NCBI RefSeq assembly: GCF_028368995.1
Contig: NZ_JAQNDL010000002.1
Span: 1,408,001-1,472,000 of the forward strand
DNA from: Nannocystis bainbridge
GTDB taxonomy: Bacteria; Myxococcota_A; Polyangia; Nannocystales; Nannocystaceae
Length of the DNA: 64,000 bases
Direction of reading: 5' to 3'
Position numbers and translations under genes: made by a program. Below the pieces are notes generated by a model. The model was not told where the DNA came from and made no database searches. It saw only the letters and a program-made list of their open reading frames with translations. Shown piece after piece: positions 2-62,141 of this stretch (its first letter is position 1; each line of letters opens with the position of its first letter).

Positions 2-550
2 AGCGGGACCACGGCGCTGCCGGCGAGCGGGCCGATCGCGGTGCCGACCGGGACGTACGCGCCGCCGAGCCTCGGCGTGGGATCGTCTAGCTTTTTGGCC
101 ATGTGCCTCGAGACATGTCGCAAGGGACCGGTCCCGTTGAGCGCGACCGACCAGGCGACCTGCCGCCTGACCTGCGAGAACTCGGCGAGCGTGGTCGACG
201 TGGCGCTCGATGCGGTGCCGGCGGTGTGGTTCGCGGCCGCACCAGCGCCGACGGTGATGACGGCGCCGCGACCTTCCCCGGTGAAGGTGACGGCGACGCC
301 GACCGGGACGCCGAGCCCGCCGCGACCCGTGTCGATGGGGACGGCCGCGGCAGGCTCGTGCGAGGCGGCGCGCTCGACCTGCGAGGGGGCGTGCTCGAAG
401 GTGCAGGCGCAGTGCGAACGCGGGTGCGGCAAGCAGAAGGTCGAGACGGACCGCGAGACCTGCAAGCTCGACTGCGGCGAGAACCTCGGGCTGTGCTCGG
501 CCGACTGCACCGGGGCACACGCGAGCTGCGTGAACGGCCGGAGCCGCTGA
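2..550 (+). CDS. 5'-partial Cys-rich protein (CxxxC helical repeats, Pro/Thr linker)
   Basis: Frame is open from the window start to TGA at 548-550; repeated CxxxC motifs (CEGACSKVQAQCERGC...CKLDCGENLGLCSADC); GC3-biased codons. Confidence 0.7.
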   Translation, partial: SGTTALPASGPIAVPTGTYAPPSLGVGSSSFLAMCLETCRKGPVPLSATDQATCRLTCENSASVVDVALDAVPAVWFAAAPAPTVMTAPRPSPVKVTATPTGTPSPPRPVSMGTAAAGSCEAARSTCEGACSKVQAQCERGCGKQKVETDRETCKLDCGENLGLCSADCTGAHASCVNGRSR

Positions 551-572
551 GGGAGGCGGCGAGCGCTGTGCC

Positions 573-1556
573 TCAGCTGCGGGGGCTGGGGAGCGGGCGG
601 GCGGCGAGGTCGAGCAGGGCGAGGCGCAGGGTCTCGCCGACAGCACCGAGGCTGCGGGCGTCGAGCTTGTCGCGGGTGTCGGCGTGGGTGTGCCAGGCCG
701 GGTAGTCGTAGTCGATGAGCAGGATCGAGGGCACGCCGGCCTCGTCGAGCGGGACGTGGTCATCGAGCAGCGGCACGGCCAGCGGGGCGGCGTCGAAGGC
801 CGTGAAGCCGTGCGCCTGTCCGATCGACCAGATCCGGTCGATGAGGGCCGGGTGCTGGGCCAGGCTGGCGAGGTCGGGCTGGACCCGCAGATCGCGGTCG
901 CCGACCATGTCGAGGACGACGCCGAACTCCGCGCGAGCGACCTGGGGGAAGCGACCCTGGAGGACCTCCGTGGCCAGCGCGCGCGAGCCGGCGAGGTACG
1001 GGCCGACGTCGGGGCGGCCGAGCTCCTCGCCGTCGAACAGGATGACGGTGACGCCGACGTCGGGCGGGAGCTGGCGGACGAGCAGGGGCACGAGCTCGAG
1101 CACGACGGCGAGGCCGCTGGTGCCGTCGTTGGCGCCGACGATCGGCTGCTCGCGGCGCGCGGGATCGGGGTCGGACTCGGCCCACGGGCGGGTGTCGAAG
1201 TGGGTGGCGAGGATGAACCGGCGTGGCGCGTCGGGGCGCACGTGGCCGAGCAGCGTGGTCATGGCGAAGCTGACGCCGGTCTGTGGATCGGCGCCGCGAT
1301 GGTCGAGGCGATCGATCACCGTCGCGCCCGCCGTCTGCAGGTCCGCGGCGAGGGCCTCGATGGCTCCCGCGCGCCGCGCGTCGCCGAGAGCTCGCGGGTA
1401 GCGGTCGAGGAGGAGGTCGACGCGCGCGAGCGCGGCCGCGCCGGAGAACGGCTCGCCGGTGTCGCCGCTGGCGGCCAGGCCGGAGGCCGACGCGCCCGGA
1501 GGACGGCCGCAGGCCACGAGGAGGGCGGCGAGCGCGAGGACGCTGCGAGCGGGCAT
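573..1556 (-). CDS. M28 family peptidase / glutaminyl-cyclase-like lipoprotein
   Basis: Lipobox LLVAC; motifs HFDTRPWA, GANDGTSG, FDGEE, DMVGD, DDH, WHTHAD; ATG at 1556 preferred over the longer track ORF. Confidence 0.88.
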   Translation of the reverse strand: MPARSVLALAALLVACGRPPGASASGLAASGDTGEPFSGAAALARVDLLLDRYPRALGDARRAGAIEALAADLQTAGATVIDRLDHRGADPQTGVSFAMTTLLGHVRPDAPRRFILATHFDTRPWAESDPDPARREQPIVGANDGTSGLAVVLELVPLLVRQLPPDVGVTVILFDGEELGRPDVGPYLAGSRALATEVLQGRFPQVARAEFGVVLDMVGDRDLRVQPDLASLAQHPALIDRIWSIGQAHGFTAFDAAPLAVPLLDDHVPLDEAGVPSILLIDYDYPAWHTHADTRDKLDARSLGAVGETLRLALLDLAARPLPSPRS

Positions 1557-1672
1557 ACCTGGCCCCTGGCATGCCCTGCGGCGGCGGCGGGTGCAAGCGG
1601 AAAAAACGCCGGTGGTGCGGACGCTGGGCGGCTGCGCGGGGTGGACCGGGGGCCTCAGTGCACGATTCTGTC

Positions 1673-59697: not shown

Positions 59698-60590
59698 CGA
59701 CACCTTTCATCGTGGTGCACGGCGGGGCCGGCACGGTGGCCGAGGACCTGCGCGACGGGGCGGTGACCGGCACCAAGGCGGCCGCGGCCGCGGGCCAGGC
59801 GGTGCTGCTCGCCGGCGGCAGCGCCGAGGCGGCCGTGATCGCGGCCGTGCGCGCGCTCGAGGACGACCCGGGCTTCAACGCGGGCCGCGGCGCGTGCATG
59901 AACGCCGACGGGGTGTTCGAGGCCGACGCGGCGATCATGCGCTCGCGCGACCTGCGTTCGGGCGCGGTCGCCGGGGTCCGCGAGGTCCGCGACACCATCC
60001 TGCTGGCGGCGCTGGTGATGAACGAGACCCGCCACTGCCTGCTGGTCGGCGACAACGCGGCCCGCTTCGCCCGCGAGCGCGGGGTCGGTCAATTCGGCCG
60101 CGAAGAGGTGTGGACCGCCAAGGCCGAGGCGCACTTCACGGCGATCCGCGCCGGCCAGCGGCTCGACAACCGCGCCGACACCGTCGGCGCCGTGGCCCTC
60201 GACGCGCGCGGCGAGCTGTGTGCGGGCGGCTCGACCGGAGGCGTGCTCTACAAGCTACCCGGCCGCGTCGGCGACACGCCGATGGTCGGCTCCGGCCTCT
60301 ACGCGCACCCCGAGCTCGGCGCCTGCGCGACGACCGGGCTCGGCGAGGCCATCCTGACCCACGTGCTCGCCTACGCGGCGCTGCAGCGGGTCCGCGGCGC
60401 TGCGAGCGACGCGGTGACGCCGCTGGCCGCGAGCCTGGTGGGCGATGTCTCGGCGCGCTGGGAGGGCGCGGCGGTCGGGCTGGTCCTGCTGCGGCCCGAC
60501 GGCACGCCGGCGATCGTGCACGCGAGCGAGCACATGAGCTGGGCGCTCGCGCGAGGCGACGCGCCCGTCACGGGCGGGCTGTCGGCCTGA
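59694..60590 (+). CDS. Isoaspartyl peptidase/L-asparaginase (Ntn hydrolase)
   Basis: VHGGAG, LEDDPGFNAGRG, DTVGAVALD, STGG, GRVGDTP and TGLGE motifs. Confidence 0.93.
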   Translation: MTTPFIVVHGGAGTVAEDLRDGAVTGTKAAAAAGQAVLLAGGSAEAAVIAAVRALEDDPGFNAGRGACMNADGVFEADAAIMRSRDLRSGAVAGVREVRDTILLAALVMNETRHCLLVGDNAARFARERGVGQFGREEVWTAKAEAHFTAIRAGQRLDNRADTVGAVALDARGELCAGGSTGGVLYKLPGRVGDTPMVGSGLYAHPELGACATTGLGEAILTHVLAYAALQRVRGAASDAVTPLAASLVGDVSARWEGAAVGLVLLRPDGTPAIVHASEHMSWALARGDAPVTGGLSA

Positions 60591-60740
60591 CGCGACCGCG
60601 TCCGGACGGCGTCCTCCGCGAGGGCATGCAGCAGGGGGCGCGTCGCTTGCTCAGCCGGAGCCGCCATTCGCCCGTCTGCGGCGGACGGGCGGTGATCTGG
60701 GCACTGGACGCCGGGGCCCGGGGGCGCCTATAACCGGCCT

Positions 60741-62141
60741 GTGCTTCGCTGCGCGCTGATCGTCGCCCTGGCCGCACCGCCGGCCGCCGCCGGTCAGGGC
60801 GCGTCGCCGGTCGCCTGGGGCCCGCTGCCGGGGCAGGGGGCGCCGGCCGGCGAAGGTGTGAAGGGACAGGCCCCTTCGGACATGTCGCCCGAGACAGGTT
60901 CTTCGGGACATGTCGAAACGGACAGTCCCGTGGCCGCCGGGCCCGAACCTGCGCCCGCGCCGGTCGAGCCGCTGGGTCCGACTGGTCCAGCGCCGTCGCT
61001 GGTCCCGCCGCCCGAGCCCGGCGAGGCGACGCTCGAGCTGTCCGGCGCGGGGCAGGGCGGGCAGGTCGTCGTGACCTCCCCGCGCGGCAAGCTGCTCGGC
61101 GCCTACGCCGTCGGCCCCGGGCAGACGATCCTGCTGCGCGGGGCGCCCGGCGAGTATGTGGTGCGCAGCCCGGACGCGCCGCACGGGTTGGTGGTGCCGG
61201 TGGTCGAGCGCACGCACGTGCAGATCGGGCCGTCGGGGCTCGCGGTGGTGCGTGACGAGGGCCCGACGCCAGGGCCCGTGGTGCGGATCGGGCGGACCGC
61301 GGCCGCGCGCGACGGCAACTGGCGCCGACCGGTCTCGCCGATCCTGTCCGCGCTGGTGCCGGGCCTCGGGCAGATGGTCAACCGCGAGTACGCGCGCGGG
61401 GCCGGGTTCTTGCTCGGGGCCGTGTCGCTCGGCGCGGGCGCTCTCGGGCTCGCGCTCACCCGCGACCGGTCCGACGCCGCGACCGCGGGCGCCCACGGCC
61501 GCACGTTCGCCGCCGACGTGGTCGGTGCGGCCGGGCTCGGGCTTTTGACCGGCGGGCTGCACCTCCTCTACATGGCGCAGGTGATGGACGCCTACGCCGG
61601 CGCGATCGGCAAGCGCTCGCCGCGGCCGCACAGCCGCCACAAGGTCTCGCTCGAGCTGCGCCGCATGGCGACCGTGGGCATGCGCGCCGGCGATCCGGCC
61701 GCGCAGCTGTACGCCGACTGGAACGTCGGCGTGCTCGGTCAGGTCGCGCCGCGCCTGAGCGTCGGCCTGACCGACCTCGGCCTCAAGTTCGGCCCCGGGC
61801 GCGCGGCGCTGCAGGGCGGGCCGCGGCTGCAGTACCGCGTGCTCGAGCGCGGCCGCGTGTGGCTGTCGCTGGCCGCCGGCGCGATCGTCCAGGGCGCGTT
61901 CGCCAGCGGCTCGCCGCCGGTCGTGCCCGAGGGCGACAAGCAGCCGCGCACGGCGGTGGTCGCCGCCGTGCCGTACGGCCAGCTCGACCTGCGGCTGTTC
62001 ATCCTCGATCGCTGGTCGATCGACATCGTCCCGCGGATCAGCGCCCCGCTCGGCGCCGCCCGCTACTACCGGGGCGACGGCGCGATCCCCAAGCAAGCGG
62101 TCACGCTCGAGCTCGGCACCGGCGTGGGGGTGTATTTCTAA
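60741..62141 (+). CDS. Hypothetical exported protein, possibly with a C-terminal beta-barrel
   Basis: Signal-like N-terminus; SALVPGLGQ membrane motif; alternating beta strands ending in a C-terminal Phe (GVGVYF). Confidence 0.7.
   Translation: MLRCALIVALAAPPAAAGQGASPVAWGPLPGQGAPAGEGVKGQAPSDMSPETGSSGHVETDSPVAAGPEPAPAPVEPLGPTGPAPSLVPPPEPGEATLELSGAGQGGQVVVTSPRGKLLGAYAVGPGQTILLRGAPGEYVVRSPDAPHGLVVPVVERTHVQIGPSGLAVVRDEGPTPGPVVRIGRTAAARDGNWRRPVSPILSALVPGLGQMVNREYARGAGFLLGAVSLGAGALGLALTRDRSDAATAGAHGRTFAADVVGAAGLGLLTGGLHLLYMAQVMDAYAGAIGKRSPRPHSRHKVSLELRRMATVGMRAGDPAAQLYADWNVGVLGQVAPRLSVGLTDLGLKFGPGRAALQGGPRLQYRVLERGRVWLSLAAGAIVQGAFASGSPPVVPEGDKQPRTAVVAAVPYGQLDLRLFILDRWSIDIVPRISAPLGAARYYRGDGAIPKQAVTLELGTGVGVYF
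60862..60930. repeat. 14-bp-period array inside a CDS linker
   Basis: GACA at 60865, 60879, 60893, 60907, 60921. Confidence 0.88.

Follow-up and report, generated by a model that had tools for sequence, protein, structure and literature searches.

Phased arrays of a 10-bp palindrome in Nannocystis bainbridge: a probable REP-like repeat family with an in-frame minority inside genes

The 64,000-nt stretch of Nannocystis bainbridge DNA analyzed here (assembly GCF_028368995.1, contig NZ_JAQNDL010000002.1, positions 1,408,001 to 1,472,000 of the forward strand; referred to as the window) contains arrays of a short palindrome that recurs every 14 bp, both in the spacers between genes and within genes. 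We consider it probable, at roughly 0.6, that these arrays form a genus-specific palindromic repeat family resembling the repetitive extragenic palindromic (REP) elements, and that the copies within genes are a tolerated in-frame minority. A sequence-only reading of the window had proposed that the intragenic arrays are a DNA-level code superimposed on tolerant protein regions. This description holds insofar as a periodic motif does run through genes, carries rare codons and often lies in linkers or loops. Phased pairs, however, are ~20 times denser per base outside coding sequences (CDS) than inside them (3887 in 1.73 Mb vs 1070 in 9.32 Mb). From this difference in density we take the intragenic copies to be the tolerated minority of a family that mainly occupies intergenic DNA 3' of genes, rather than a code directed at proteins.

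The genome has a size of 11.05 Mb and a G+C content of 71.5%. The repeat unit consists of the 10-bp palindrome GGACATGTCC and four free bases, which together give the period of 14 bp; two neighboring units jointly form a 24-nt palindrome. As read off its sequence, the unit contains no stop codon in any frame of either strand. The phasing is evident from the self-spacing of GACATG, whose 6371 occurrences in the whole genome form 808, 422, 338, and 164 pairs at distances of 14, 28, 42, and 56 bp, respectively. A position weight matrix was derived from 1412 units that are each flanked by seed units, which keeps the seeds from biasing the matrix. Its consensus is AAGGACATGTCCTT, with CATG at 93–95% and the flanking GGA/TCC at ~55–75%. 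An array was defined as at least two in-phase units that each score >6, with at least one of them scoring ≥10. By this definition the genome contains 2538 arrays with 7844 units, and the longest arrays have up to 18 units. Genes were predicted by a simple caller based on codon log-odds, for which long open reading frames (ORFs) served as the training set; it yielded 8227 genes covering ~84% of the genome. A restriction-site signature in the form of CATG avoidance was ruled out, since CATG is commoner than expected genome-wide (39,940 observed vs 32,145 expected). CTAG is strongly depleted genome-wide (1509 observed vs 7649 expected from trinucleotides), while CATG and GATC are not.

The placement of the arrays follows gene ends. 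We found 1534 intergenic arrays, 365 arrays straddling a gene end and 639 arrays in a predicted CDS. Spacers differ in array content according to the orientation of the genes around them:

Convergent spacers: 2.33 arrays/kb, with an array in 550 of 1342 spacers
Tandem spacers: 0.78 arrays/kb, with an array in 581 of 3787 spacers
Divergent spacers: 0.30 arrays/kb, with an array in 128 of 1497 spacers

Arrays in tandem spacers lie at a median of 49 nt from the upstream stop codon, a quarter of them within 13 nt, and at a median of 189 nt from the next start codon. Those in convergent spacers lie at a median of 31–43 nt from a stop codon. The arrays that straddle gene ends do so at 3' ends in 256 cases and at 5' ends in 90 cases. 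The unit itself shows no polarity relative to transcription.

The family is confined to the genus to a large extent. The pair pattern is present in all ten congeners, in one of eight other genera of the family (two matches) and in none of 12 other families, and a reversed-pattern control gave no match among the relatives. Three in-phase 8-mer cores were sought in 185,579 species genomes and recovered in 40 stretches, 22 of them in Nannocystis or Nannocystaceae records; the perfect 10-mer triple had no match in the same collection. Turnover was assessed by a synteny comparison of the window with five close relatives that are ~90% identical. Only 33% of the positions in intergenic arrays align to the relatives; where they align, CATG is 89% identical and the spacer bases are 44% identical. 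The orthologous spacers of the relatives contain 0–13 units where the window has 2–10. Intragenic arrays are conserved like their host gene, with 91% identity in the core and 83% in the spacers, compared to 92.5, 94.0, and 84.2% at CDS positions 1, 2, and 3, respectively. Their units are also more degenerate than the intergenic ones (CATG core 66% vs 84%; mean score 11.6 vs 12.7).

Intragenic arrays could be chance matches arising from codon usage or amino-acid content, or non-coding DNA misread as coding, but we hold this to be scarcely credible. In the CDS of the whole genome, 1095 pairs of units scoring >6 are found at 14 bp against 66.5±6.2 in ten synonymous-codon shuffles (16-fold), and 328 pairs scoring >10 against 7.4±1.7 (44-fold). 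The window CDS (46 genes) contain 14 pairs scoring >6 against 0.61±0.79 (23-fold), a number reached by none of 300 synonymous shuffles. Off-period pairs are absent from the window CDS and occur at shuffle level in the genome CDS. The sequence-only reading had named an intragenic hit rate and 14-bp pairing equal to those of synonymous-codon shuffles as the outcome that would speak against it; as phased pairs lie far above the shuffles, both in the genome and in the window, this objection falls away. A codon artefact is thereby refuted for the strong cases. Long spurious open frames do occur in high-GC genomes, which lends some plausibility to misread non-coding DNA, yet Pfam domains and ortholog alignments are found on both sides of the arrays in ybeY, in the genes starting at 60696, 31648, and 21273, and in the genes for MazG, RlmL, CarA, and a Mur ligase, which refutes this reading for the genes checked. 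What remains in favor of chance concerns weaker matches. Single units in the genome CDS exceed the synonymous shuffles by only ~5% (21,883 vs 20,846), so an isolated core means little, and five of 11 loci that had been named in the window are at chance level.

These 11 loci were listed in the sequence-only reading by the positions of their cores, which are accurate: each marks the C that opens a CATG-like core, at an offset of 5 bases in the 14-base unit. Three of the cores fail as units, namely 21940 (score -2.6), 31789 (-2.1), and 46747 (-1.1). For each locus we give E, the expected number of equally good matches per 54 kb of shuffled CDS. Six loci stand above chance, two of them clearly (60862 and 31742) and four moderately (95, 21949, 21566, and 23423). 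All 11 lie in frames judged to be coding, mostly by Pfam domains or ortholog alignments; the basis is a cysteine-repeat ORF with a third-position G+C content (GC3) of 0.91 at site 95, and codon statistics alone at 2412, where Pfam gave no match in that frame. Three further intragenic arrays of the window had not been listed (59383, 56939, and 18661). The intragenic features of the window are as follows, with E given for the 11 loci:

59383..59480, gene on the + strand: seven-phase array of 98 nt inside ybeY; scores 11.4, 7.3, 5.5, 6.2, -1.1, 12.9, and 10.5, flanks -16 and -18
60862..60931, gene on the + strand: five-unit array in a P/A-rich linker of ORF 60696-62141; scores 10.2, 12.9, 9.7, 12.8, and 6.5; five units matched by no shuffle
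31742..31783, gene on the + strand: three-unit array at the signal-peptide end of TPR gene 31648-32496; scores 13.7, 13.3, and 9.2; E ~0.005
95..122, ORF on the + strand: cysteine-repeat ORF whose CxxxC motif (AMCLETC) carries two units; scores 10.3 and 11.3; E 0.03–0.14
21949..21990, gene on the + strand: three moderate units of the CAGG variant in gene 21273-22604; scores 6.6, 9.6, and 7.4; E 0.09
21566..21593, gene on the + strand: strong and weak unit in gene 21273-22604; scores 13.8 and 7.0, the partner scoring -0 to 5 in relatives; E 0.17
23423..23450, gene on the - strand: strong unit with a sub-threshold partner in gene 22879-24564; scores 14.5 and 5.9; E 0.2
46756..46769, gene on the - strand: single strong unit in gene 46302-47261, in the linker that joins its two MazG domains; score 16.7, neighbor at 46742 -1.1; E 0.86, chance level
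32585..32612: N-terminal part of a Peripla_BP_6 gene, chance level as a pair; scores 5.0 and 9.8; E 1.1
25030..25085: HTTM-domain gene, chance level; scores 2.2–5.0; E 1.3–4.7
19274..19301: VIT-VWA linker, chance level; scores 5.4 and 6.4; E 2.5
2412..2439: chance level; scores -0.3 and 8.2; E 6
56939..56966, gene on the + strand: two units within the GAF domain region of GAF/HD gene 56324-58204; scores 14.0 and 6.7; identical in all five relatives
18661..18688, gene on the - strand: two moderate units after the VWA domain of VIT-VWA gene 17694-21059; scores 7.5 and 9.8; identical in all five relatives

The ybeY array coincides with an in-frame segment of 30–38 residues, which splits the Pfam YbeY match at profile position 84. 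The closest relatives have the insert, whereas two distant congeners and other genera lack it. A structural model based on a 15-sequence alignment (predicted local distance difference test, pLDDT, 76.3; predicted template modeling score, pTM, 0.76; a single-sequence fold gave a pLDDT of 40.8) places the insert between the helix at 98-108 and the HGLCHLLGHDH helix. In this predicted structure, the insert directly precedes the latter, metal-binding helix. The pLDDT drops to 50–55 over the blocks at 111-140, compared to 80–95 in most of the core elsewhere. One congener has retained the insert peptide (VLWGVLVETGP), yet its best unit there scores ≤5.1, indicating that the DNA motif has decayed.

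The ybeY array is a long inverted repeat with CAGG in units one to three and CCTG in the three that follow, and its halves can pair (-55 kcal/mol, z -5.3). In this it differs from the majority of short intragenic arrays, which have direct CAGG copies. The open frame holding ybeY (58249-59697) encodes 482 residues with the YbeY domain starting at approximately residue 295; the first 290 residues have no Pfam match and may represent a separate gene or non-coding DNA. In one close congener (G007), the ybeY match is broken by stops around the array (one TGA; two stops in the extracted sequence), which may reflect a frameshift or misassembly of the repeat.

ORF 60696-62141 has a signal-peptide-like hydrophobic N-terminus that is conserved genus-wide and also in a second genus. 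Because this conserved N-terminus lies upstream of the array at 60862, the five-unit array sits inside the gene. The linker that bears it, ~40–45 residues long, is found only in the six closest genomes. In the TPR gene 31648-32496, the peptide G(Q/H)VLAA(M/S) together with one to three units is retained in eight of nine other congeners aligned. The start codon of this gene (ATG at 31648) overlaps the stop codon of the upstream gene 29867-31648; the codon-statistics caller instead chose an ATG within the array unit at 31762 as the start.

Gene 21273-22604 has the same length at site 21949 as in the outgroup, which reads NFDPEMAAR there and has no unit. The peptide G(H/Q)DPED(M/R) with at least two phased units is found in the window genome and in seven of eight congeners aligned at this site; congener L049 has one strong unit left (15.0). 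Site 95-122 carries its two units on a CxxxC motif rather than on a linker, and they are retained in four of five close relatives aligned. The protein concerned has 421 residues, looks secreted and is encoded by an ORF that enters from upstream of the window (window positions 1-550). It contains four ...TC(R/K)L(D/E/T)C... cysteine motifs with proline-rich linkers between them, and no Pfam family was found for it. At 23423, the strong unit is retained in all five relatives (12.0–14.2), in a gene (22879-24564) with a weak Metallophos match. The position of the MazG linker unit follows from Pfam, and the linker has the same length as in motif-free genera. The array at 56939 corresponds to residues ~205-214 and thus lies within the GAF domain, which spans residues 133-298 according to Pfam.

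Across the genome, 36 strictly interior arrays have at least four units. Twenty of these passed our filters (gene of ≤900 residues, array ≥80 residues from both ends, outside the window), and Pfam domains are present in 13 of the 20 proteins. The array lies outside or between domains in nine of them, for example in the linker from the lipoyl to the E3-binding domain of an E2 acyltransferase, in the inter-domain linker of CarA and at an IucA-FhuF junction. In the other four, the array lies within, splits or overlaps a domain (Mur ligase M, AA_kinase, RlmL methyltransferase, and a cytochrome motif). Eleven of the 13 proteins (L105 and L114 were left out) were compared with two distant congeners and three other genera. 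Four carry insertions: RlmL, CarA, and L101 have 9–23 extra residues relative to five out of five subjects each, and the IucA-like gene has 34 extra residues relative to another genus. E2, ThrA, and a histidine kinase have linkers of variable length or were left unclassed. Taken together with the window genes, an insertion absent from the orthologs is seen for ybeY, RlmL, CarA, L101, the IucA-like gene and 60696, and not for the Mur ligase, L106, two M28 peptidases and 21949. The idea that arrays overlay existing residues therefore needs to be revised, as many of them are insertions that add residues instead.

The effect on codon usage was determined for 363 interior arrays, located ≥150 nt from both gene ends and flanked on each side by same-frame sequence with a good coding score. 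Within these arrays GC3 is 0.642, compared to 0.949 outside, which bears out the observation of atypical codons made from the window alone. The codons CAT, ACA, TGT, and GGA are enriched 16–26 fold in intragenic arrays. The 883 intragenic units are read in all three frames (320, 222, and 341 units), with GHV(P/L), (E/K/S)DMS, and GTGP as recurring array peptides, in line with the sequence-only reading. The encoded peptides had been described as non-repetitive. This is correct for short arrays, but long arrays encode peptides that repeat every 14 residues (three units, 42 bp), such as ETGPSGHVREVKSAETGPSGHVPK in RlmL and EGHVREGMSDAAGPEGHVREGMS in CarA.

The proposed preference for linkers and loops is met in part. 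Long arrays are mostly outside or between domains, and the ybeY array corresponds to a low-confidence stretch between helices, but the arrays at 95-122 (CxxxC), at 21949 (GHDPEDM) and in the Mur ligase M domain lie on conserved or structural residues. Array flanks are slightly richer in disorder-promoting residues (0.567 vs 0.546, p = 7e-5), while the ten residues on each side of the arrays are no less conserved than controls (37.6% vs 38.9%, p = 0.17). Paralog alignments, available for 127 of the 363 arrays (265 alignments), show 26% identity in the array segment vs 39% in the control, and gaps in 10.9% vs 5.3%. Along the length of genes, the intragenic arrays are evenly spread.

We propose that the family proliferates and turns over chiefly in short spacers just 3' of genes, and that the intragenic arrays would be copies that landed or formed in genes and survived there. 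Survival would depend on a stop-free unit, on a block that keeps the frame and on a tolerant site, such as a linker following a signal peptide, an inter-domain linker or a surface loop. Two routes may be envisaged. A whole array may be inserted in frame, which would add 15–40 residues, or existing codons may be replaced by array sequence at the same length, perhaps through gene conversion from other arrays. Once inside a gene, the array would bring in rare A/T-ending codons and subsequently evolve largely with the protein. The intragenic copies would be selfish or neutral. This last point and the routes of spread are inferred, whereas the sequences themselves show the non-random phasing, the habitat 3' of genes, the insertions, the effect on codons and the turnover.

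Several observations weigh against this interpretation. The REP-associated transposase RAYT (PF01797) was not found in the window genome, which is 90% complete, while six of 14 control genomes were matched. The consensus AAGGACATGTCCTT also lacks a GTAG or CGTC tag. Without RAYT and tag, this interpretation does not account for the spread of the family. Four of the 11 long arrays compared (Mur ligase, L106, and two M28 peptidases) show little or no change in length; the Mur ligase M domain holds four units, with no extra residues relative to four out of four orthologs, none of which has a unit. Simple insertion cannot explain such length-preserving cases, nor the one at 21949. At the latter site, at least two units persist, along with the rare codons GGA and CAT/CAG, across subgroups with 37–41% protein identity, and this genus-wide retention hints at maintenance at the DNA level. 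That CATG hardly varies is more suggestive of recognition by a protein. Hairpins find little support, as complementarity beyond the units amounts to 33–37% vs 25–28% in 846 intergenic two-unit arrays, and central variants have spread as direct copies and not as compensating ones. The counts of intragenic arrays hinge on a simple codon-statistics gene caller. Finally, conservation of A/T third positions in the relatives reaches 79% within array cores vs 38% elsewhere, although this contrast is biased, since at 95% GC3 the majority of A/T third positions have arisen recently. Under a fairer control, limited to A/T sites also present in the relative that is most distant among the five, the excess in synonymous conservation that the sequence-only reading had suggested looking for is no longer significant (92% vs 77%; 12 of 17 vs 206 of 327 sites conserved in all four other relatives, p = 0.61). 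Continuing DNA-level selection on the intragenic arrays is thus weakly indicated by these sequences.

A protein-based alternative is that the arrays are tandem sites for a dimeric winged-helix protein of the PadR type or similar, which would coat the DNA behind genes, with the intragenic sites kept by selection, e.g., as roadblocks, pause sites or nucleoid anchors. The junction of two adjacent units reads ATGT-N8-ACAT, which corresponds to the canonical PadR operator, given as ATGT-N8-10-ACAT in the operator description of PMC3506622. The invariance of CATG (93–95%) next to free 4-base spacers, the lack of polarity relative to transcription and the genus-wide retention of two units at 21949 would also fit such a protein. 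In the collection scan, three-unit arrays with the 14-bp period were found in other phyla as well, and in four of five actinobacterial loci examined, the array occupies the divergent spacer between a PadR-family and an RPE65-family gene, at a PadR gene promoter. The Nannocystis arrays differ from these operators in that they number thousands, lie 3' of genes and not at promoters, and shun the divergent, promoter-bearing spacers. The PadR family (PF03551) was not found in the window genome or in six of ten congeners, although 14 of 14 control genomes were matched and the arrays occur in all ten congeners. Where congeners do have PadR genes, the promoters lack the array; only one of six loci has one, 1.2 kb away. 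The decay of the ybeY motif in a congener that kept the peptide and the lack of extra synonymous constraint under the fair control also argue against selected binding sites. We therefore consider this alternative unlikely. A specific version, in which the genus amplified operators of PadR grammar to thousands of copies for a putative divergent winged-helix binder, with the intragenic copies selected as roadblocks or nucleoid anchors, appears quite improbable to us. At the sequence level, the match to the PadR operator grammar nonetheless suggests a concrete candidate class for a binding protein.

The arrays could also act as RNA, with 10-bp hairpins and 4-nt loops that would stabilize or end transcripts behind genes and, inside genes, would delay ribosomes or flag sites for processing at domain borders. 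Their 3'-proximal placement, densest between convergent genes, is consistent with this role, as are the predicted folds of three intergenic arrays (z -6.1 to -7.3), of ybeY (z -5.3) and of 60862 (z -3.3). In addition, intergenic two-unit arrays are slightly more complementary beyond the units than expected (z ~5–6), with compensation odds ratios of 1.6–1.8 at unit positions 3/8 (hand-computed from counts). However, no T-run follows the arrays, the central CAGG variants occur in direct, non-pairing orientation (65+44 direct vs 26+22 inverted pairs), and the 426 intragenic two-unit arrays have no excess complementarity. For 31742 and 21949, two short CAGG-type arrays within genes, the predicted fold is no stronger than that of shuffled sequence (z -0.5 and -0.1, respectively), and the sole Rfam match in the window is a tRNA gene (63220-63304). 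We regard a function in RNA as rather unlikely, and a REP-like repeat family with tolerated intragenic copies remains our preferred interpretation.

Among known systems, REP elements and bacterial interspersed mosaic elements (BIMEs) are the closest. According to Di Nocera et al. (2013; PMC3733652), REPs lie mainly between convergent or unidirectional genes near 3' ends, and intragenic REPs encode 20–82 residues. The Nannocystis family shares with them a high copy number, restriction to a genus or species, palindromic units clustered in arrays, a 3'-proximal and mostly extragenic location and a minority of copies in frame within genes that encode tens of residues. It differs in having a perfect 10-bp palindrome with a strict 14-bp period, whereas REPs in that account are 20–40-bp imperfect palindromes in alternating orientation, and in the absence of a GTAG/CGTC tag in the consensus and of a RAYT gene among the matches. 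Rickettsia palindromic elements (RPEs), cited in the same article, are similar in that a palindromic element is inserted in frame in conserved genes, here ybeY, RlmL, and CarA. In-frame palindromic repeats are thus already known from REPs and Rickettsia elements, as far as described there (PMC3733652). New here are arrays with a strict 14-bp period, together with the lack of a detected RAYT, the length-preserving cases and the PadR-operator grammar.

The elements of Rickettsia are longer single elements of ~100–150 bp, which their host proteins accommodate as an added surface segment, and are found in the reduced genomes of intracellular bacteria. The Nannocystis arrays consist of 14-bp units in an 11-Mb genome of a free-living bacterium, and half of the cases compared lack an insertion. 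DNA uptake sequences (DUS/USS) and the cyanobacterial HIP1 palindrome are single over-represented words with no fixed period. They also occur in genes, where they constrain codons and favor tolerant protein regions. The Nannocystis arrays resemble them as short over-represented words found inside genes as well, and differ by their fixed period. Literature searches by motif and by myxobacterial repeats, none of which used the genus name Nannocystis, revealed no description of the arrays; a search with the 10-mer GGACATGTCC yielded only p53 papers, and the RepRanger paper does not mention myxobacteria.

With ~2500 arrays in 11 Mb, the family is a large and unusually regular addition to the REP-like elements, in a myxobacterial genus studied for its natural products. 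Several hundred of the arrays are read as protein, and the clean insertions in housekeeping enzymes (ybeY, RlmL, and CarA) are natural tests of how much added sequence a fold tolerates. The length-preserving cases, such as the four units in the Mur ligase without a trace in the orthologs, pose a mechanistic puzzle and may reveal a conversion-like spread of short repeats. There is also a consequence for annotation: arrays lower local coding scores and can mislead the choice of start codons, and the caller used here cut two gene starts at arrays.

The intergenic arrays of the window are located in six regions:

1676..1812: two arrays of 2 + 3 units
3566..3749: two adjoining arrays of 4 + 8 units; the spacer of the relatives has 1–13 units
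6139..6250: array of eight units; fold -57.8 kcal/mol, z -7.3; 0–4 units in the orthologous spacers of the five close relatives
16498..16567: five units within a convergent spacer of 82 bp; predicted to fold as two perfect hairpins, z -7.3
41470..41553: six-unit array immediately 3' of the stop codon of gene 40027-41469
62181..62208: two-unit array in a 59-bp spacer after gene 60696-62141

The collection scan revealed two sets of three-unit arrays with the same 14-bp period outside the family. A Mycolicibacterium, two Mycobacterium metagenome-assembled genomes (MAGs) and a Rhizohabitans carry three GACATGTC units in the divergent spacer between PadR and RPE65-dioxygenase genes (L174 7610-7645, L179 4624-4659, L206 2872-2907, and L185 5020-5055), where the regulator has the PadR and Vir_act_alpha_C domains. 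This triple looks like a conserved tandem operator. Records of the Roseobacter group (Sulfitobacter, a Roseovarius MAG, and a Rhodobacteraceae MAG) contain three copies of TGACATGTCA (L195 443-478; also L171, L173, L189, L193, L200, L201, L204, and L197). In L195, the triple is directly followed at 480-560 by direct repeats of ~13–14 bp (CTTGTCAGG...).

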